Source: Shigella phage ESh19
Length of the DNA: 64,000 bases
Direction: 5' to 3' (one strand)
Sequence record: ON528729
Shown one piece after another: positions 2,536 through 14,770 of this stretch. Position 1 is the first letter of the stretch. The number at the start of each line of letters is the position of its first letter. Both the position numbers and the translations under genes were made by a program. The notes beneath the pieces are model-generated. The model did no database searches and had not been told where the DNA came from. It was given only the letters and a program-made list of their open reading frames with translations.

Positions 2536-2708
2536 AAAATTTTTAAAAATATTTTTGATGTTTCGTGAATAGAACGCACGTATGCGGATACACTAAAACA
2601 GGAATCTAGTCAAGAATTATTTTTGAGTTCTCTACAAATTTTTCTCTTGACTTTTGGGAGGAAGGGGAGTAAGAGGGGATGGTGGGGCTGGCTTCCTACA
2701 GCTACCTA

Positions 2709-2934
2709 CCTGCACAATTCGAAAATGAATTTTCCCTTTGGAGTCCAACTGCATCTGCACAAATTGAAAATGAAAAATCCCTTTGGAGTCTAGACCTGCA
2801 CAAATTTGAAATGAATTTTCCCTTTGGAGTTCAGCTAAAGAAATCTGTCCAGAGTTCTATGCAACTATACCTGCACAAATTTAAAATGAAAAAGCCCTCC
2901 TTACCTGAGATTTTAAACTCAAACTTTGGAGGGC
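2709..2934. repeat. degenerate direct-repeat array (4 copies of ~37 bp unit CCTGCACAAATTnGAAAATGAAnnnnnCCCTTTGGAGT)
   Basis: copies start at 2709, 2754, 2795, 2870; the fourth carries a 25 bp insertion; non-coding (indels break frame). Confidence 0.7.
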
Positions 2935-2935
2935 T
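2893..2935 (-). terminator. possible long-loop terminator after macrodomain gene
   Basis: GCCCTCC...GGAGGGC inverted repeat followed on minus strand by T-run; loop is long (25 nt) so weak. Confidence 0.25.
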
Positions 2936-2960
2936 TGTCTATGTCTATGTAGGTGACTTA

Positions 2961-3755
2961 TTAGTTACGTGCTTCAACATAGTTTACGTTTTCATGTGTG
3001 ATATAATCTTCTGCAAACTCTTCTGTAGTCGAATTGATATACACACTTGCATCATCACCAAACGTTACCGCTCTGTGGTGGTGACCTTGTAACGGGTGGG
3101 TAACTTGAGCGTTACTTCGATTGTACTTCTCAACCGGAGGGTAACTGGTGTGTACCTTGCCATTACGCTTCACCTTGAGGGTAACTTTATCCTTGCCTAC
3201 CACAGCAACACCATCAAAATATTGAGGCTCACTGAAGTTCTCCCAACCAGTAACAGGACTAGTCAACTGACTGTACATCTTATCTTCATAGACATACATA
3301 TATACGTCAACATCTTTCATAGTCTGATTAATAATGGACAGCACAGCCATACTATCAAGACCACCAATCCCTGCACAAATCATAGGAAGCCCAACTTTCT
3401 TAAGTTGGTTGACTTTGCAGTAATTATTCAGACGCTGCAAAGCTGCTTCTAAAGCATTGTACCGTGCATCTTTGCCAGTGATAACCTGAGTATAAAGGTT
3501 AGCAATCCGACCCTGCTTAAAACGTGCTACAGAGATGTTACCAAGCATTAGGTGCTTAGGGTTATGATTTTCACCACCTACTGTAGCATAAACCTCAGCG
3601 TCAGTTTCATAAGCTTTTGGGTAGCGTTTAGCAATTGTTGCTGCGATACCTGAACCCATCAAGTTCATGCAGTTACAACCGTGACCAATGATATCAAACT
3701 TCTTACCATCAAAGTCTTTAAAGATATCACCTTTAATAATTTTTACGATACCCAT
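2961..3755 (-). CDS. macrodomain protein, TARG1/DarG-like ADP-ribose hydrolase fold, with extra C-terminal domain
   Basis: KGDIF..DIIGHGCNCMNLMGSGIAATIAKRY matches TARG1-type macrodomain signature (catalytic Lys in KGD, G-rich phosphate loop); start re-set to ATG 3755 (MGIVKII), since track start 3812 overlaps the upstream gene and lacks an SD. Confidence 0.6.
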   Translation of the reverse strand: MGIVKIIKGDIFKDFDGKKFDIIGHGCNCMNLMGSGIAATIAKRYPKAYETDAEVYATVGGENHNPKHLMLGNISVARFKQGRIANLYTQVITGKDARYNALEAALQRLNNYCKVNQLKKVGLPMICAGIGGLDSMAVLSIINQTMKDVDVYMYVYEDKMYSQLTSPVTGWENFSEPQYFDGVAVVGKDKVTLKVKRNGKVHTSYPPVEKYNRSNAQVTHPLQGHHHRAVTFGDDASVYINSTTEEFAEDYITHENVNYVEARN

Positions 3756-3756
3756 A

Positions 3757-3957
3757 TTAGTAATGCTCCCAACGTTCGTTATCTTCAGAGGGTTTAACTC
3801 GGTTACCTTCATGGTCTACCCATAAAGCACCACAGCCTTCACAGATTACTGGCATTGCTGAACCAGCTTCAAACTCTGCTTTTGTAAAGAGACCTTTTAA
3901 GTCTCCTGTATCTTTTCCAAACATCTCAACAGAACACTTAGTGCAGAAATCAGCCAT
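3757..3957 (-). CDS. small zinc-ribbon protein (66 aa)
   Basis: CxxC ... CxxC pairs (CTKCS, CEGCG). Confidence 0.5.
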   Translation of the reverse strand: MADFCTKCSVEMFGKDTGDLKGLFTKAEFEAGSAMPVICEGCGALWVDHEGNRVKPSEDNERWEHY

Positions 3958-4210
3958 TTGAGATTACCTCTTGTAAGAATACTCTGTCACCGTATCTTTC
4001 CTTAATGAGGGTCTTCCAATATCCGAGTTCCTCTCTTAGATAGCCCCTGTCAATATAGTGACAAAAGTCACCAGCCTTAAAGTGGCTATGTGATAGTACA
4101 GAACCTTTATAGATTCGTGAACCAAATGGCATCACCTCATCCCTTCCAACAAATATAGCCCCTGCTAACACTTGACGTGTAACTTTACTTCTTACCAGAA
4201 TTGCTTTCAT
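3950..4210 (-). CDS. hypothetical protein (86 aa)
   Basis: ORF in operon, short overlap with neighbours. Confidence 0.45.
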   Translation of the reverse strand: MKAILVRSKVTRQVLAGAIFVGRDEVMPFGSRIYKGSVLSHSHFKAGDFCHYIDRGYLREELGYWKTLIKERYGDRVFLQEVISNG

Positions 4211-6499: not shown

Positions 6500-7195
6500 T
6501 CAGTTTTTAACAAGCATTGTTTTGATGTGTGGTAAGATTCTTTCAACCTTTGCCACGTTCTTCACTGTATCTTCTATAAAGCATACTACATCATAGTAAG
6601 GTAGAATGCAAGACTGAAGCATACGAACTTTTAAACTTTCTGCACTAATCTCATTGTCACCAAATCCACGCATAAACAGTAGGAAATCACTGTCTACATT
6701 CTCATTCAGGAAAAGATGTGTGACAACTCTTTGTGATTCTCCACGAGCAGTTAAGAATCCTATATCAGCATTTCTTGATATACCACACAGGATGTTAAAA
6801 ACATATGTTGGTTTAGCTCTGCGAGAGTCTACCAAGTTAGTATACTGTGAGTAAGTGCCGTCATCTAACAGAGTTGCATTAAGTTTCTTGTCAAAGCTTG
6901 TAAGAACACCATCAATGTCTGCTAAGACCATTTTACGTTTTTCTTCCAAGTTCTTTGCAACCAAGATAAGACTATTACGACCAACATATACAGTTTTACC
7001 TGTTAGCAAATCCTGACAAGGAATCTGTGTCTTTGTTGAGTGGAAGTCTTCAAAGCTACACACAACATCTCTTGCTGTATCTGCAAAGTCAGCTTTAGCA
7101 ATATCTGACCAACTTGCAGAACTGATATCTAAATCAAGTGGCTTGATATCATAAGCATGACACAGAACCATGTCAAATTGTTTTGATTCGCTCAT
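6500..7195 (-). CDS. HAD-superfamily phosphatase-like protein (tentative)
   Basis: MVLADIDGVLT resembles HAD motif I (DxDG[TV]); located mid-protein, N-terminal domain unassigned. Confidence 0.4.
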   Translation of the reverse strand: MSESKQFDMVLCHAYDIKPLDLDISSASWSDIAKADFADTARDVVCSFEDFHSTKTQIPCQDLLTGKTVYVGRNSLILVAKNLEEKRKMVLADIDGVLTSFDKKLNATLLDDGTYSQYTNLVDSRRAKPTYVFNILCGISRNADIGFLTARGESQRVVTHLFLNENVDSDFLLFMRGFGDNEISAESLKVRMLQSCILPYYDVVCFIEDTVKNVAKVERILPHIKTMLVKN

Positions 7196-7822: not shown

Positions 7823-8935
7823 TTAGACTTCACGTTTACGCTGAGAAATCAGTTCACCAGCAGTGCCTACAACTACGTGGAGTGCTTCTGAACCATCCCA
7901 CTCTTTGATGATTTCACGGCGACTATTTACAATCGCTGCAACTTCATAACGGGAAGCTCGCATTTTCATGTCGTTGTAGTCAGTTGGTACTGAAACAACA
8001 TCACGAGGATGAACACGAACTTTCAGGATAGTGTCACCAGAGAAGCTAGTTACATAATCCCAAGCACCAACGTGCAGACCCTGAGAGCAGGTTACATGGC
8101 GGTTATTATCAACCATCCAACGTGGCATCTCTACAATGTTACCCAAATCATTTGGAACTTTGCAGGTACGAGAGTCAAACAGTTTACCACCACGAGTTGT
8201 GACTTTCTTCCAACCGATGATATAACCTTCTTCATCAATTTCAACATCGAGGTGTGATACGAAGCCCCAAAGTTGTTCTACAGAATCTTTTGATGGGTTT
8301 TCCATCAGTTTTTCGAAGAATGCAATCAGTCGAACAAAACCATTATCACCTTTCTTCATCATATCCAGAATACGGTCTACCAGAGTTGAGCGCATCTGAA
8401 CAGCACCGTAATACAGGTTGTCGCCTTTGATGGTTACAGCACCCTGAGTGAAGTTCTCAATAGACTTGCGAATGTTCATCAGTTCAAAAGCTTTCTTGTA
8501 CTCACCTGAAACAACAGCCATTACAATATCAGTGTAGTTAGGGTGAGTTGACTCAACAATCTCAGACTCTGCACCGAAAGTCATGATAACAGAATCACCA
8601 GTAATCATGTACTCAATCTGGCTGTTATTCTGCATTGCTTCATGCAGAGCATTTACAGGTTCTGCTTTGACTGCTTCTTTAACAGCTTTTGCAACAGGCT
8701 TCTGCTTAGATACTTTCTTGGTCGCTTTAGCTTTCTTTGCAATATCTTTCAGAGTCTTTGCAGGTTTTGCTTTGGTTTTCCCTGACAGCAGCGTTGCTTC
8801 ATGACGCTCTACAGCACGACCTACCGAACGGGTTGAAGTGTTATACTTCAGAGCGATTGCAGTTTTGGTCAGTTTACCTTCTTTAACCAGTGCATAGATT
8901 TCTGCGTCGATTTGTGCTTTAGTCTTAGTAGTCAT
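7823..8935 (-). CDS. rIIB: rIIB protein
   Basis: C-terminal block CSQGLHVGAWDY..KVRVHPRDVVSVPTDYNDMKMR and central LVDRILDMMKKGDNGF match remembered T4 rIIB; directly downstream of rIIA. Confidence 0.8.
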   Translation of the reverse strand: MTTKTKAQIDAEIYALVKEGKLTKTAIALKYNTSTRSVGRAVERHEATLLSGKTKAKPAKTLKDIAKKAKATKKVSKQKPVAKAVKEAVKAEPVNALHEAMQNNSQIEYMITGDSVIMTFGAESEIVESTHPNYTDIVMAVVSGEYKKAFELMNIRKSIENFTQGAVTIKGDNLYYGAVQMRSTLVDRILDMMKKGDNGFVRLIAFFEKLMENPSKDSVEQLWGFVSHLDVEIDEEGYIIGWKKVTTRGGKLFDSRTCKVPNDLGNIVEMPRWMVDNNRHVTCSQGLHVGAWDYVTSFSGDTILKVRVHPRDVVSVPTDYNDMKMRASRYEVAAIVNSRREIIKEWDGSEALHVVVGTAGELISQRKREV

Positions 8936-8985
8936 TTCAATATCTCTCTTTGTTGTTTAAAATTACTTAGTGGTTCGTATTCTAA

Positions 8986-9001
8986 GGGGCTTTTCAGCCC
9001 C
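8986..9001 (-). other. GNRA-tetraloop hairpin (GGGGCU-GAAA-AGCCCC on minus transcript) between rIIA and rIIB
   Basis: identical 16-mer recurs at 13847-13862; no U-run follows. Confidence 0.5.
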
Positions 9002-9014
9002 TGTCAAACTATTT

Positions 9015-11387
9015 TTATTCCCAACAGTTGGTATCTTCTGGGATGCTCTTAGTGTCAAAACCTAAAAACTTACCAACTTCGACGGGTGATACTTTATTCC
9101 AATCCAGATTAGAAAGCAAGAAGTTTTCTTTACGGCGTTTCTCAAAGTAATCTTTGAACTTGCTTTCAAGACGCTTCTTAGCATTATCCAGTACCTTTCT
9201 TGGCTTACAAGAACCTCTCATATTCCTGCGAATGGTATCAAGAGTGCTGGTGATATCTTTGTAAGCAACTGGTGCAGCAGTGTATGCCAAGCGTCCAAAC
9301 ATTGCTTCTATAGCCTCTTCATTCCCCTCTAAGAAGATAGTCTTCTTAAAGTCTTTACTGTACATGTGGCCTCTGGACTTACGTTTATCAGCAAACATAA
9401 AGTTTCGAGAAATCACATTACAATCAGTGATATCATGATTATTTGTCATGTACTGATATGTCAAGTAACGATGATACTCAATCCAATGAGTGTTATCAAT
9501 AAAATCTTTCAATACTTGTTCATTGACTTCTGTCCAATCTTCAGGAATCTTTTTCCAGTTGGCTTTACGGAAGACATAAACTGACTGTCCAGTTAACTCT
9601 GTCATCAACGTTGCAGCACGTTCTGGTGAACATGAGAAGATTCCACCAATCACTTCATCACTCTGTGCTTTGATATACAGTTGTGGTTCTTCAATCTCGT
9701 CAAAGTTCTCTTTAACCTCTGTATAGCGAATCATGTCGGTATTTGGACATATAAATGCTTTATACAGTTTTACAACACCACGTACAATAGTACGTTTTTC
9801 ATAGTGGTGTTCTTTAGATGACATTGTATGCACACTTAACAGACTTTTGTCAAGCATATGTAAATCTACAAACTCATCAAATTGCTGCTGACTGCTGAAC
9901 AAGAAAGCAATACCATTGTAGCGACGGAAGTTAGAGTCTTCCTGTTCACGGTCACGGCAAGCCCCACGGATAATCTGGTTTTTACCAGTTGTCTTTTCAG
10001 ACCCGTTCTTGTTTCGACGGTCATTGATAAGGAACAAGTAGTTGCTCAACTTATCTTTACTCATCGCTCCAAAGATACTAAACATTGCTGCATCTTGTGA
10101 ATAAGTCGCTGAAGTTGCCCGAATACGGTTCTCCAGACTGCTGTACTTGTAGTATGCTACAGGTTCATACAGATTACCAATATTAGGAACTGGATTACCA
10201 TCTTTATCAAGCCTCAAGTTACCCGCATCATCTTTCAAGAATGACGGAGAACCATCTGCTTCAGTTAACTGACCACGACGAATACCTAACAGTTTTTGTT
10301 CAAGCTTTTTCAAGTTCTGGCCTTGCCATTCCAGAGAATCTTGAACGTGATTAAAGATTTCACGAGCCTCTTTCCTCATGGTATCGTAAGCCTGTGCAGC
10401 ATCAATCAGAGTTGGCTTGTTAGCAATCTCTTTTACCACATCTTCTACGATTGTCTTAGTGATTTTCTTCACAGCTTCAACAATCTTAGTTTTGGTAGTC
10501 TCATTCATCTGCAATGCTTCACGAGATGCAGCAATAGCTACTGAACCAATTGGCATGTAGATGTTAACAAGGTCTACAGCACTACGGAAGAACTGAGGCA
10601 GAATGCTTGTAAACTCTGAACCAAGCAACTCACCCATTTCAACCGGATAAGCAATGTTACCCATGATTACATTGAAATGGACGCTGTTACTATTTGAGCG
10701 CCAGTTCTCTTTGTACTTCATTGCATCATAGACACCATCTTCACGAGAAATGGAAGTCATTGCTTCAAGAATGTCATAGTACTCAACATTACACTCTGGC
10801 TTAACTTTAAAGTACGAGTATACATTGCTCGCTTCTTCATGAAACTTGTTAATACGGTTATCAGATACCGCTACTCGAACAGCTAAACCATTTGGCTCTG
10901 TAGTTGGGTTAGTAGTCAACTTAGTTACTTGAGGGATACCATTCTCAAGGTAAACTGAGTATTTGTTAACTACACCATCAACATAGCTCGATACAGTGAA
11001 TGACTGAGCAATTGCAAATGGTGACTTTGAACCGATACCCATAGCACCAATGTAGTCATTTGAATCGTTCTTTGTGGATTCTCCATAGGTCATGTAAAGT
11101 TTCATAACTTTTTCATGAGTCAGCCCTGTACCAAAGTCACGAACTTCAAAGAATGGTTCAAAACGAGTTGGTAAGTGAACCAAGAAAGGTTTATCAACAT
11201 TACCAGAATCAATGTGAGCATCTACTGCGTTACATGATAACTCACGAATTACAGCACGTTCTTTATATGTGTAAACACCTGAGCTTAGAAGACTGAACAT
11301 TTCAGGTGTCATCTTAATTTGAGCCTGAGAGGTTTCCAGTGTACTTGAGCTTTTAATTACCGTTGCGTGGTCATTTACCATGCGCAT
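9015..11387 (-). CDS. rIIA: rIIA protein (GHKL ATPase-like N-terminal domain)
   Basis: N-terminal RAVIRELSCNAVDAH and DYIGAMGIGSKSPF blocks match remembered T4 rIIA / HATPase N-box and G-boxes. Confidence 0.85.
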   Translation of the reverse strand: MRMVNDHATVIKSSSTLETSQAQIKMTPEMFSLLSSGVYTYKERAVIRELSCNAVDAHIDSGNVDKPFLVHLPTRFEPFFEVRDFGTGLTHEKVMKLYMTYGESTKNDSNDYIGAMGIGSKSPFAIAQSFTVSSYVDGVVNKYSVYLENGIPQVTKLTTNPTTEPNGLAVRVAVSDNRINKFHEEASNVYSYFKVKPECNVEYYDILEAMTSISREDGVYDAMKYKENWRSNSNSVHFNVIMGNIAYPVEMGELLGSEFTSILPQFFRSAVDLVNIYMPIGSVAIAASREALQMNETTKTKIVEAVKKITKTIVEDVVKEIANKPTLIDAAQAYDTMRKEAREIFNHVQDSLEWQGQNLKKLEQKLLGIRRGQLTEADGSPSFLKDDAGNLRLDKDGNPVPNIGNLYEPVAYYKYSSLENRIRATSATYSQDAAMFSIFGAMSKDKLSNYLFLINDRRNKNGSEKTTGKNQIIRGACRDREQEDSNFRRYNGIAFLFSSQQQFDEFVDLHMLDKSLLSVHTMSSKEHHYEKRTIVRGVVKLYKAFICPNTDMIRYTEVKENFDEIEEPQLYIKAQSDEVIGGIFSCSPERAATLMTELTGQSVYVFRKANWKKIPEDWTEVNEQVLKDFIDNTHWIEYHRYLTYQYMTNNHDITDCNVISRNFMFADKRKSRGHMYSKDFKKTIFLEGNEEAIEAMFGRLAYTAAPVAYKDITSTLDTIRRNMRGSCKPRKVLDNAKKRLESKFKDYFEKRRKENFLLSNLDWNKVSPVEVGKFLGFDTKSIPEDTNCWE

Positions 11388-11999: not shown

Positions 12000-13826
12000 T
12001 TAAAGTTGCTTGTCAATAGTATTTCGAACATCACGCAGGTTAACGTAACCATAAGGTTGCGAGTTACTAAATACCAGTTTCAAAGCACTATGACAATTGT
12101 CAATTGCACCTTCAAACTCTGCAAAGCCAAAACCATCTACAGCTACTAGCTTGTCACCATCCCACATAGGGACGACTCCACCAAAAGCAGACTTCTTAAG
12201 ACCACTGTCAGTTTTAGGGTCTTTAGCCAGCATAATTTCTTGACCATCCATCTGTGCAAGAGTTGCTTTAACAGCAAATGCAAATGTGTCACGAGTCAGG
12301 TACTGATAGGTGTATGAGCCTACACCAAACACTACGTTAGAACTTGCAAAACCTTTATCAGCAAGACGTGACAGAATCTCATTAGCCCTTTCCAGAGTGA
12401 TAGAATCACCGTAGATTAGTCCAATGTGCTCATCCAGTACTTTGTACCCTTTGGAGTTAACAGTGCCACCAAAGATGTTATACAGCGTGTGGATAGCTCC
12501 ATCAATTTCTGCTGTTAACATACGCTTCACAGTAAACTGTCCAGTTTTCTGAGCGGTAATCAGGTTGATTGTATCAATATAATCAAAATCTTCATTTTCA
12601 GCAACCATCTCATATCCTTCAGAGATTAACCAAGCAGAGAACCCAAAACCAATATCAGACATTTCACAATTCAAGATTGTGTCATGCAGATGGGTATTAT
12701 CTGGTGCAAGACCTTTCATGTGCTTGTAGAACATTGACTTAGCAGTTTCCCATTCAACGGCTTTGTAACCTGTAACAATGTGAACAGGGTCTCCAGAGTC
12801 TGGACGAATTACCAACTTACCATCACGATTCAGAATTACATTACGTAGCTCTGGCAGAATCTCTGTAACAGTACGCCAGAAGTTGTAAGTATCTGAAACA
12901 ACACTTGCAATACCAGTTGGATATACGTCTACCAGTAAATGCTCAAAGGTTTTAACCTCACCACGCCAACGTTTTGCATCCAGCAAGCTATCAGACCGCA
13001 TGATGTACTGTGAATGAATATCTTCCTCTGACAAGTCTTTCATATTCCATGAAATGTTTGCGCACATCACAGAGTGTTCAGTAGCTGGTACAGAGTTGCC
13101 GATATCACTTACTTCCATAAACTGACCATAAGAACGTTTAGCAGTGTAGACAGCAGGGAAGCTGTCAGTACCTTTAAAGCTTGTCAGGTGTCCTACTGCG
13201 TTAAACGCATCATCTGTGAAGCCAGACATGCCACGCATTGCAAAGTCATGACACTGCCAAGGTAAATGGGAGTCGTTGTCACAGGTTAAATCAGCCCATT
13301 GCTTACAAATACGTTTGTAATGCAGTGCAATAGTTGCAATCGTACAAGCTTTCCAGATTTCAGCAGAGAAAGCATCTTCAAGGTAACCAGCTACCCAATG
13401 GAATCCCTCTACAGTATTTTTGAAGACAATCATCGGGACACGCATAGGGACAATTGTACCTTCCTCTACAGAGTAGACTTCAACAGGTAGGTAACCCAAG
13501 TCATGAAGTTCTTCCCAATGTTGACGACCAATAGTATCTGCACCAAGGACACCATTCATGATTTCCAAGATTTCGTCAATGGCTTCTTTCTTATCACGTT
13601 CAAAGAACGTTGCATTCCAGTGGTCTACCAGATAGTCTTTTACAAAACGCTGAATACCAAAAGCTACAACACCATCAATCTCTAACGGAGAGTTAAACCA
13701 TTTATCTCCACGAGGTGTTAAGTTCAACATAAGATACTGTGTAGCATCTGGATACTGATAGATATGACCCGCTTTATAAGCATCTGCATTAAGACCTGCT
13801 GGTACTGCATAGATTGATTTAGTCAT
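12000..13826 (-). CDS. nadV: nicotinamide phosphoribosyltransferase-family enzyme (Nampt/NadV-like; possibly nicotinamide ADP-ribose transferase)
   Basis: blocks YKAGHIYQYP, HDFAMRG..SFKGTDS, PATEHS, VVSDTYNFW, IRPDSGDP, GVGSYTYQYLTRDT align with eukaryotic/bacterial Nampt; 608 aa, longer than canonical ~490 aa. Confidence 0.8.
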   Translation of the reverse strand: MTKSIYAVPAGLNADAYKAGHIYQYPDATQYLMLNLTPRGDKWFNSPLEIDGVVAFGIQRFVKDYLVDHWNATFFERDKKEAIDEILEIMNGVLGADTIGRQHWEELHDLGYLPVEVYSVEEGTIVPMRVPMIVFKNTVEGFHWVAGYLEDAFSAEIWKACTIATIALHYKRICKQWADLTCDNDSHLPWQCHDFAMRGMSGFTDDAFNAVGHLTSFKGTDSFPAVYTAKRSYGQFMEVSDIGNSVPATEHSVMCANISWNMKDLSEEDIHSQYIMRSDSLLDAKRWRGEVKTFEHLLVDVYPTGIASVVSDTYNFWRTVTEILPELRNVILNRDGKLVIRPDSGDPVHIVTGYKAVEWETAKSMFYKHMKGLAPDNTHLHDTILNCEMSDIGFGFSAWLISEGYEMVAENEDFDYIDTINLITAQKTGQFTVKRMLTAEIDGAIHTLYNIFGGTVNSKGYKVLDEHIGLIYGDSITLERANEILSRLADKGFASSNVVFGVGSYTYQYLTRDTFAFAVKATLAQMDGQEIMLAKDPKTDSGLKKSAFGGVVPMWDGDKLVAVDGFGFAEFEGAIDNCHSALKLVFSNSQPYGYVNLRDVRNTIDKQL

Positions 13827-13846
13827 CTTTTTATCTCTCTCAAAGT

Positions 13847-13862
13847 GGGGCTTTTCAGCCCC
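13847..13862 (-). other. GNRA-tetraloop hairpin between Prs-like and Nampt-like genes (identical to 8986-9001)
   Basis: GGGGCTTTTCAGCCCC exact repeat. Confidence 0.5.
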
Positions 13863-13870
13863 TAAAGTTT

Positions 13871-14770
13871 TTATTCAATATTTGCTACGGTCACTTGTGA
13901 GAAGTGGGAAAGACCACGGTCTTTTTCATCCCCTAGTGAGTTTGTAGTGTAGATATGGTCGATACCATTGTCAAGGAGATTTTCAACACCTTTAGAGAAA
14001 ATCCCATGAGTGACATACAGTTCTACACGTTCTGCTCCAGCTTCACGAAGATACTTTGCAGCCTCGATAAATGTTCGACCACCGTCACAGATATCATCCA
14101 GAATCATGACGGTCTTACCTGTCAAGTCTACATCATCAAGGATTCGCATACCAGTGATTTCACCAGTTTTCAGGTTTCGTACCTTAGCCATTGTAATGTA
14201 AGGTTTCTCAACCTCTTTAGCAGCCTCTTCAGTCTTCTTAGCTGCACCTGCATCTGGAGCCACTAAGTAATCAATGCGTGGGTCACTTGCAAAGTGGACT
14301 GCTGCCTCTTTTTGAGGGAGGTTGTAGAAGCTCTTAAACAAATTCTCTGCAACATTACTGTGAGTATCCAGAGCACATACTGCATCGAACTCCATAGCAT
14401 TTACAAGATTTGCAAAGACTTTAAGTGCTGCTGCATCACCTTTAAACATGTGACGGTCATAGCGAGCATTTGGTAAGAATCCAAAGACAACAGTTTTCAG
14501 GGTTGCTTTCTGAGGAATCAAACGGTCAATTGCTTCTTTAGCCATAGCCAATGCAAAGAGTGTGTCTTTGTCATAACCTTGTACAGTGAATATTACGTTT
14601 TCAATCTTACCAGCAGCATGTTCAGCAAAGTCTACTAAGTCTTCTGAGAAATTACCACCAATCTCCCCAGAAGGGAACTGGATAATGTTGAAGGTCTCTT
14701 GGTGAGTACCTTTGGAATTTGAATTAATCAGGACTCGAATAGTAGTTTTCATAATATCTCTCTCAGTCAA
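13871..14770 (-). CDS. ribose-phosphate pyrophosphokinase-family enzyme (Prs-like; possibly ADP-ribose pyrophosphokinase)
   Basis: PNARYDRH and VMILDDICDGGRTF resemble Prs divalent-cation and PRPP-binding loops; adjacent to Nampt-like gene. Confidence 0.75.
   Translation of the reverse strand: MTERDIMKTTIRVLINSNSKGTHQETFNIIQFPSGEIGGNFSEDLVDFAEHAAGKIENVIFTVQGYDKDTLFALAMAKEAIDRLIPQKATLKTVVFGFLPNARYDRHMFKGDAAALKVFANLVNAMEFDAVCALDTHSNVAENLFKSFYNLPQKEAAVHFASDPRIDYLVAPDAGAAKKTEEAAKEVEKPYITMAKVRNLKTGEITGMRILDDVDLTGKTVMILDDICDGGRTFIEAAKYLREAGAERVELYVTHGIFSKGVENLLDNGIDHIYTTNSLGDEKDRGLSHFSQVTVANIE

Follow-up and report, generated by a model that had tools for sequence, protein, structure and literature searches.

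In the window, that is, the whole stretch of 64,000 nucleotides of Shigella phage ESh19 (sequence record ON528729) that was analysed, the minus strand carries a gene for a 264-residue protein composed of an N-terminal macrodomain and a C-terminal extension, and this gene, its product and its surroundings (Table 1) are the subject of the present analysis. The window is a segment of a Mooglevirus genome (Ounavirinae, Felix-O1-like), and its positions 2600-4000 presented 99.0% identity to Shigella phage Sf17 and 93-96% to other Ounavirinae of Shigella, Citrobacter and Escherichia. Annotations for the enzyme family exist and the family as such is not new, whereas the form found in Ounavirinae, fused to an orphan domain that evolves fast, is a variant not yet characterised.

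The open reading frame (ORF) on this strand spans 2961..3812 in its longer form and would encode 283 residues, and the ATG at 3755 yields the 264-residue form. The longer start at 3812 was dropped in favour of 3755 on account of the position of the upstream stop codon, the coding sequence (CDS) length of relatives and the start of the PHROG match. In fact, the preferred ATG directly follows the stop of the upstream gene (TAATATG), the RefSeq CDSs of relatives measure 795 nt in Sf17 (gp041, 'phosphatase', 99% DNA identity to the window gene), SUSP1 and ESh21 and 786 nt in FelixO1, and the match to phrog_335 starts at residue 16 of the 283-residue form. This 'phosphatase' family was matched across the full length of the protein (E=3.6e-106), and the same label is used by RefSeq and PHROGs.

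Table 1. Features of the macrodomain locus and of the NARP1 genes in the window, with the basis of each assignment
Feature	Coordinates	Strand	Basis or remark
Macrodomain/C-terminal domain gene, CDS, 264 aa	2961..3755	-	ORF list and sequence; stop codon 2961-2963
Macrodomain, residues 1-157	3285..3755	-	PF01661, profile matches, Foldseek, 40% identity to T4 Tk.4
H25-G-C-N28 motif	3672..3683	-	H25 = Poa1p H23 / Gary Adpp H24; N28 = DarG N22 / Poa1p N26 (alignments)
N86-L-Y-T-Q90 motif	3486..3500	-	Q90 at the catalytic Lys position of TARG1 K84 and DarG K80
P124-MICAGIGGL-D134, second ADP-ribose phosphate-binding loop	3354..3386	-	G131 = TARG1 D125 (alignments)
C-terminal extension, residues 158-264 (107 aa)	2964..3284	-	AlphaFold2 models; no Pfam match; no structural neighbour but its own orthologue
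Candidate intrinsic terminator, hairpin AGCCCUCC...GGAGGGCU and U-run	2887..2936	-	25 nt past the macrodomain gene's stop codon
Upstream 66-aa protein, four-Cys CxxC...CxxC, phrog_2210 (function unknown)	3757..3957	-	Stop abuts the macrodomain gene's start codon
Namat-like gene (Nampt fold), second NARP1 enzyme	12000..13826	-	Pfam NAPRTase and NAMPT_N; Sf17 annotation nicotinamide phosphoribosyltransferase
Adps-like gene (Prs fold), first NARP1 enzyme	13871..14770	-	Pfam Pribosyltran and Pribosyl_synth

Fold, active site and phage relatives

A reading made from the letters of the DNA without database searches (the sequence-only reading) had assigned the N-terminal ~145 residues to a macrodomain of the TARG1/DarG type, and all the strings it quoted (KGDIF, DIIGHGCNCMNLMGSGIAATIAKRY, GLPMICAGIGGLD and QGHHHRAV) were found in the window protein. 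The macrodomain itself was confirmed, its extent being now set at about residues 1-157. The Pfam family Macro (PF01661) was matched with 30.5 bits against a gathering cut-off of 22 (E=3.8e-7), and a family profile built from the window protein and 15 database relatives, searched against PDB, recovered TARG1 (9.4e-15), Poa1p (1.4e-14), Mycobacterium tuberculosis DarG (2.4e-13) and Thermus aquaticus DarG (2.6e-10). Similarly, Foldseek comparison of the AlphaFold2 (AF2) model, which had a mean predicted local distance difference test (pLDDT) of 79.6, retrieved TARG1 with a template modelling (TM) score of 0.82-0.86, DarG with 0.80 and Poa1p with 0.74, at a probability of 1.00. The closest solved relatives are thus TARG1, Poa1p and DarG, which places the protein in that macrodomain sub-clade; the best match in PDB to the single sequence was Poa1p (E=5e-5).

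The family alignment and the alignments with solved relatives revealed a different active site from the one proposed. K84 of TARG1 and K80 of DarG both aligned to Q90 of the window protein, and D125 of TARG1 to G131 of its GIGGLD string; K84 was placed by a hidden Markov model alignment to 4j5r and K80 by a MAFFT alignment with DarG sequences checked against PDB. N22 and K80 have been named as the active-site residues of DarG2 (PMC13309987). H25, N28, N86, T89 and Q90 were invariant in the family alignment, and the orthologue of Erwinia phage vEam_W_25 (Kolesnikvirus; L005:2932-3714) carries a Gln where HGCNC has its His (GQGCNC). With a cut-off of 250 bits, the NCBIfam DarG model NF048014 scored 49.2, and its match was limited to profile positions 2-152 of 338. 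Beside the gene no darT was found; small phage proteins surround it, which lack Pfam matches and fall in PHROGs of unknown function, and the 50 kb examined in the related genome of Sf17 contain no annotated ADP-ribosyltransferase. Because the catalytic Lys is replaced by Gln and D125 of TARG1 by Gly, a loss that the sequence-only reading had itself named as one that would refute its proposal, the protein is not of the TARG1/DarG type, and this label had to be abandoned, as had its DarG component in view of the low-scoring match to the macrodomain part of the model and the missing darT. HGCNC...NLYTQ...P-x-I-x-A-G-I-G-G is the signature of the phage family of Tk.4 and Adpp (Poa1p-like) and not that of a Lys-dependent glycohydrolase; the predicted ADP-ribose-binding loops are intact, and the identity of the macrodomain stands.

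Macrodomains of this kind were found by tblastn in 2,784 phage records, including the Tk.4 genes of T4-like phages. T4 Tk.4 presented 40% identity to the window protein across 136 residues (BLASTP, E=1e-18), both carrying motifs of the HGCNC, GSG[IV]A, NLYTQ and PRIGAGIG types, and the original annotation of the FelixO1 orthologue reads 'protein in tk-vs intergenic region'. The two proteins share the phrog_335 family, a loop of eight residues after the Gln, a setting among small and mostly uncharacterised genes and the lack of linkage to NARP1, the enzyme pair Adps and Namat; Tk.4, however, has 155 residues and is a macrodomain only, whereas the window protein adds a C-terminal region of 107 residues. 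Depletion of transposon insertions and a clean knockout demonstrated that Tk.4 is required for the resistance of T4 to DarTG2, and the protein was named AdfM, for 'anti-DarT factor macrodomain' (HIDEN-SEQ preprint 10.1101/2025.11.20.689424). A second protein called AdfM, gp104 of the chimallivirus PhiKZ, is DarG2-like and has a proven DNA de-ADP-ribosylation activity (Cell Rep 2026, PMC13309987); it is a phage macrodomain used against DarTG2, but it retains the Lys, which assigns it to another macrodomain sub-family, and the phage nucleus imports it. The literature search returned no paper on the function of any Ounavirinae macrodomain.

Another member of the family has been characterised biochemically. 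Adpp of Vibrio phage Gary (KNV71_gp137), a Poa1p-like macrodomain encoded in a NARP1 operon, dephosphorylates ADP-ribose-1''-phosphate (ADPR-1''P) in vitro; it converts the ADPR-1''P made by aRES so that NARP1 rebuilds NAD+, and it is needed for NARP1-AP to overcome aRES (10.64898/2026.01.28.702374). Moreover, loss of any of the three NARP1-AP genes ended the anti-aRES activity, and the anti-aRES test included the construction of an Adpp H24A mutant (10.64898/2026.01.28.702374). Gary Adpp reads HQCNC...NVYGQ...PLIGCGLAGGD and is ~29% identical to the window protein, with which it shares the family and the His, Asn and Gln positions, the invariant Gln being common to Gary Adpp and to all other NARP1-adjacent macrodomains of Osterman Table S1. 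Both phages encode NARP1, so that ADP-ribose (ADPR) would be recyclable to NAD+ in either. Gary Adpp, in contrast, lies inside the NARP1 operon, has an aromatic-rich loop of 15 residues and is devoid of a C-terminal extension.

Among the solved macrodomains, Poa1p of Saccharomyces cerevisiae (PDB 6LFQ-6LFU), an ADPR-1''-phosphate phosphatase, shares H-x-C-N-C, GxGIA and the macrodomain sub-clade, but it has Ser at the Q90 position, a long loop, a large insertion ahead of its second phosphate loop and no C-terminal domain, and it acts in the metabolism of eukaryotic tRNA-splicing by-products. DarG2 of T. aquaticus and M. tuberculosis (PDB 5M31, 5M3E, 5M3I) is similar in fold (TM ~0.80), in the Asn (N22 = N28), in GGLD, in the short loop and in the two-domain layout, a macrodomain followed by a second domain; it differs in K80, in its adjacent darT, at ~22% identity, and in its DarT-binding C-terminal domain, undetectable in the window protein. 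Human TARG1/OARD1 (PDB 4J5Q, 4J5R, 4J5S), the top profile and fold match, also has a His at the H25 position and a short loop, and it differs in K84, D125 and a Ser at the N28 position, being a eukaryotic protein de-ADP-ribosylase.

NARP1 was first found in Felixounavirus Bas63, and the window carries it as a two-gene operon at 12000-14770, the genes of which are still annotated in RefSeq relatives as ribose-phosphate pyrophosphokinase and nicotinamide phosphoribosyltransferase. The Adps-like protein showed 77-81% identity to its counterparts in the Escherichia and Salmonella phage records listed (86-89 kb). The macrodomain gene is not part of this operon, lying 8.2 kb away with 15 genes between (counted in Sf17), which according to the Sf17 annotation comprise rIIA/B, lysin, polynucleotide kinase (PNK), spanin and small genes. 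By position, and from the near-identical Sf17, a PNK-like gene was assigned to 6500-7195 and rIIB/rIIA-like genes to 7823-11387, all on the same minus strand. Osterman et al. took as NARP1 macrodomains those within two genes of Adps or Namat; the window gene lies beyond that distance, and no Ounavirinae are listed in their table. Co-occurrence of the gene with NARP1 was considered and set aside as uninformative, since the C-terminal domain was found in 242 phage records and Adps (at least 60% identity) in 252.

The loop that follows the Q/K position separated the two settings more clearly. It measures eight residues (VITGKDAR) in the window protein, as in all Ounavirinae orthologues (including that of the Erwinia Kolesnikvirus), Tk.4, both DarGs and TARG1, and 11-15 aromatic-rich residues (QYxYG-type) in 13/13 distinct types of NARP1-adjacent macrodomain examined and in Poa1p. 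By motif counts, which cover ~125 of the NARP1-adjacent macrodomains of Osterman Table S1, the short loop does not occur there at all. The closest relative composed of a macrodomain only (P0009) has the short loop and adjoins DNA polymerase A, and two more distant relatives lie near the gene for single-stranded DNA-binding protein (P0014) or adjacent to genes for a PIF1-family helicase and a clamp loader (P0015); none of the three has NARP1 nearby. A neighbour-joining (NJ) tree, a distance tree on ~148 columns whose large distances call for caution, grouped the window protein with Tk.4 and other macrodomains that lack linkage to NARP1 and separated it from those adjacent to NARP1, the node being recovered in 100 of 200 replicates.

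The C-terminal extension

The extension had been estimated at ~120 residues and has 107. In the AF2 models it is predicted to comprise a low-confidence linker (residues 158-~178) and a beta-rich module (~180-264) of six strands and one helix, the folded part presenting block-mean pLDDT values mostly of ~67-90. No Pfam family was matched, the best Foldseek match in PDB had an E of 0.22 and the sole match in BFVD was the protein's own orthologue in phage SUSP2, in agreement with the initial statement that no fold could be assigned. The His-rich string noted in the sequence-only reading is present in the window protein; it is not conserved, since orthologues read QGHHHR, QGHCHR, AGHCMR, HDHCLR, KGSMQR or KSNHRI at this place, and its interpretation as a metal site was rejected.

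A profile of the extension built from eight orthologues was used in an exhaustive search of 1.84 billion representative proteins and returned five matches, the true homologues among which were members of the same fusion only. One of them (P0016) is a fragment and another (P0018) a genuine but frameshifted fusion protein; two alpha-helical proteins with tetratricopeptide repeats (P0017 and P0019) were discarded as spurious, since they matched through the repeated string 'GDxRSRAVTxGxIAxIY'. By tblastn the extension was found in the 242 phage records mentioned above, those listed having genomes of ~82-90 kb and being mostly phages of Escherichia, Salmonella, Shigella and Citrobacter; in these searches the domain was confined to Ounavirinae. 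In Kolesnikvirus (vEam_W_25) an extension of the same length is found in the same genomic position, with no detectable similarity (hhalign probability 0.4%).

The C-terminal domain is under purifying selection and yet evolves several times faster than the macrodomain. The ratio of nonsynonymous to synonymous substitution rates (dN/dS) was 0.12-0.59, below 1, for the former versus 0.07-0.27 for the latter, and between the window protein and that of ESh21 the amino acid identity was 58.9% in the C-terminal domain versus 91.7% in the macrodomain (dN 0.311 versus 0.051). A metagenomic, Felixounavirus-like contig (L007) provided a further allele, in which the gene (291-1069) is frameshifted into a 162-residue macrodomain ORF and a 114-residue C-terminal ORF; compared with FelixO1, the identity was 47% in the macrodomain and 30% in the C-terminal domain, while the flanks were conserved. 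The split gene is either a pseudogene or the result of an assembly error at a hypervariable locus. A fast C-terminal domain and a divergent allele between conserved flanks are the pattern expected of an arms-race locus. DarG2 is known to pair its macrodomain with a DarT2-binding domain, and by analogy the C-terminal module would be a targeting or partner-binding domain, for DNA or for a host toxin.

Flanking sequence

The 66-residue protein encoded upstream shows 75% identity to its counterparts in FelixO1 and contig L007, which occupy the same position and are nearly alike, and it is far better conserved than the C-terminal domain encoded by the macrodomain gene; it may be a functional partner of the macrodomain protein. 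On the other side, the hairpin at 2887..2936 (free energy -22.6 kcal/mol, z=-3.95, 0/200 shuffles as stable), which is kept in Sf17, is the probable intrinsic terminator of the gene; its long loop explains why a consensus scan missed it.

The 500-bp gap downstream of the gene also contains four direct repeats of ~43 nt, at 2708-2911. Their core, TCATTT[TC][CA]AATTTGTGCA on the minus strand, has four matches in the 64 kb, all of them here, with 0.02 expected, and three copies of the same core stand at the syntenic site of Erwinia phage vEam_W_25, which is distant. Because it recurs there, the core is under selection, and the repeats could form a promoter, an operator or an iteron-like array; they had no match in Rfam, and no RNA genes were detected in the window by Rfam and tRNA scans. 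Just past the repeat array there is a long pyrimidine-rich tract, CCCCACCATCCCCTCTTACTCCCCTTCCTCCC (2640-2700, minus strand), which is kept in Sf17 and the translation of which reappears in contig L007.

Possible roles in counter-defence

The protein is probably a macrodomain hydrolase directed at C1'' of ADP-ribose and used against host immunity based on NAD+ or ADP-ribose. The idea of a counter-defence function, already present in the sequence-only reading, gained support from the homologue Tk.4, reported to protect T4 against DarTG2. Tentatively, and at somewhat less than even weight, the activity would be AdfM-like, the removal of ADP-ribose from phage DNA modified in the DarT2 manner. The fold, the membership in the family, the substitutions in the active site, the distribution and the rates of evolution were observed; substrate, timing and the part played by the C-terminal domain are inferred, as follows. 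The macrodomain would grip the ADP-ribose moiety through the GxGIA and P-x-I-x-A-G-I-G-G loops, and the constellation H25/N28/Q90, instead of the Lys of the TARG1/DarG type, would hydrolyse the group on C1'' of the distal ribose. At an early stage of infection the enzyme would strip the ADP-ribose placed by a DarT2-type host toxin on thymidines of single-stranded phage DNA, replication and packaging of the cleaned DNA could go on, and the freed ADP-ribose might be turned into NAD+ by the NARP1 enzymes of the phage, the Namat-like enzyme being its possible consumer. The use of released ADP-ribose by this Nampt/Prs-like pair had been suggested at the outset, and it has a published precedent in the NARP1-linked Adpp macrodomains that supply ADPR. 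The C-terminal module would target the enzyme or bind a partner, in a logic like that of the second domain of DarG2, with a different sequence.

Several observations weigh against this AdfM-like reading. A Gln stands in place of the Lys on which DarG (K80) and TARG1 (K84) depend, which leaves the chemistry of cleavage of the N-glycosidic thymidine-ADP-ribose bond unexplained. The phage AdfM with biochemical proof, gp104 of PhiKZ, keeps this residue (N23/K78) (PMC13309987), and the support for T4 Tk.4 is genetic, comes from a preprint only and includes no enzymology (10.1101/2025.11.20.689424). The best single-sequence match in PDB is to a phosphatase, Poa1p, and the identity to NARP1-adjacent macrodomains (29-37%) is about equal to that to Tk.4 (35-40%). 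The long loop was discarded as a general marker of NARP1 linkage, since it holds in one direction only, P0014 and P0015 being long-looped with no NARP1 nearby. No DNA-binding or toxin-binding fold was detected in the C-terminal domain by structure searches of PDB and BFVD. For the Ounavirinae the case is drawn from sequence and predicted structure, and the presence of NARP1 in the phage and of aRES homologues in its hosts suits a phosphatase of the Adpp kind equally well.

In that alternative, aRES would phosphorolyse NAD+ to nicotinamide and ADPR-1''P, the macrodomain, although unlinked to NARP1, would produce ADPR, and Adps and Namat would rebuild NAD+; ADPR-1''P itself is unusable by NARP1 (10.64898/2026.01.28.702374). 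Gary Adpp, of the same family, is a proven ADPR-1''P phosphatase and Poa1p the founding one with HxCNC, and their His (Poa1p H23, Adpp H24) and Asn (Poa1p N26) are both present as H25 and N28. The window encodes NARP1, a system discovered in a Felixounavirus, the records with Adps (252) and with the C-terminal domain (242) are similarly distributed, aRES homologues are found in Escherichia, Shigella, Salmonella and Citrobacter, which are hosts of such phages, and the existing RefSeq and PHROGs label is 'phosphatase'. The gene, however, stands outside the NARP1 operon, with rII, lysis and PNK genes between, it lacks the aromatic-rich loop of every NARP1-adjacent macrodomain examined and of Poa1p, and the NJ tree groups its product with Tk.4. 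Tk.4-type macrodomains are, moreover, common in T4-like phages, and NARP1 is not known from T4. The replacement of His by Gln in the Kolesnikvirus orthologue is also unfavourable to a phosphatase, a point drawn from that sequence alone, and it is not obvious what an extra C-terminal domain would do in a small-molecule phosphatase. The similarity to Tk.4, the NJ tree, the eight-residue loop and the distance to NARP1 are the reasons for which the AdfM-like activity was favoured, together with the placement of P0009, P0014 and P0015 among genes of DNA replication, the arms-race pattern and the two-domain build of DarG2; an Adpp encoded at a distance from NARP1, the main rival, was judged somewhat unlikely yet viable. 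Nevertheless, one enzyme may carry out both reactions, which is conceivable because each cleaves a C1'' substituent.

The substrate could instead be another ADP-ribose conjugate, such as mono-ADP-ribosylated proteins, RNA ADP-ribosylated by CmdT-type toxins, O-acetyl-ADP-ribose or the ribose-ribose glycosidic bond of the cyclic ADP-ribose (cADPR) isomers of Thoeris, the enzyme either reversing the modification made by a toxin or destroying an immune signal. Macrodomains of the same clade accept several C1''-linked substrates, which speaks for this option, and several relatives are annotated 'O-acetyl-ADP-ribose deacetylase'. Viral macrodomains dephosphorylate ADPR-1''P in vitro (aRES preprint, 10.64898/2026.01.28.702374), and the phage enzyme RyDEP turns 2'/3'cADPR into ADPR for NARP1, which makes a C1''-hydrolase feeding NARP1 conceivable. 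Against this, no family member has been shown to act on such substrates, the deacetylase annotations were transferred automatically, the enzyme known to degrade cADPR is of another fold and the lack of an annotated ADP-ribosyltransferase in the Sf17 segment makes self-regulation unlikely; this option was considered unlikely overall. A non-catalytic binder, in which the macrodomain would sequester ADP-ribose molecules or the C-terminal domain would block a host toxin stoichiometrically, would fit the absence of the canonical Lys and Asp, the replaced His of the Kolesnikvirus orthologue, the fast-evolving C-terminal domain, which resembles a protein-protein interface, and the report that ICP1 AdfB neutralises DarT, likely by direct interaction. 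As Gary Adpp, with the same Gln, is a proven enzyme and the family-wide invariance of H25, N28, N86, T89 and Q90 argues for catalysis over mere binding, such a binder is very improbable. A literal glycohydrolase of the TARG1/DarG type, using a conserved catalytic Lys and Asp, could invoke TARG1 and DarG as the top fold and profile matches and the likeness of GGLD to the GNGGLD of DarG; with an invariant Gln and a Gly at the two positions, a DarG model far below its cut-off with its C-terminal half unmatched and no darT, there is hardly any likelihood left for it. Finally, a two-pronged factor can be imagined, imitating DarG2 in its logic but built of unrelated parts, in which the Lys-independent macrodomain would strip DNA or ADPR-1''-X and feed NARP1, while the hypervariable domain would bind, neutralise and co-evolve with a host ADP-ribosyltransferase or NADase, a combination that we regard as quite speculative and improbable.

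Phage macrodomains have only lately been tied to two counter-defence roles, that of AdfM against DarTG2 and that of Adpp, which feeds NARP1 against aRES. The window gene stands at the junction of both, with a Tk.4-like sequence in the lineage in which NARP1 was discovered. It thus raises the question of the chemistry by which a macrodomain with Gln for Lys would cleave DNA-linked ADP-ribose, a question that applies to the AdfM of T4 too, and also those of whether an unlinked macrodomain could extend NARP1 protection to aRES and of what a fast-evolving, lineage-restricted C-terminal domain contributes. The practical stake is modest, namely a better prediction of the defences evaded by the Ounavirinae used in the biocontrol of Salmonella and E. 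coli, and the answers would put right the annotation of about 240 genomes, in which the gene is labelled uninformatively as 'phosphatase' or 'hypothetical'.

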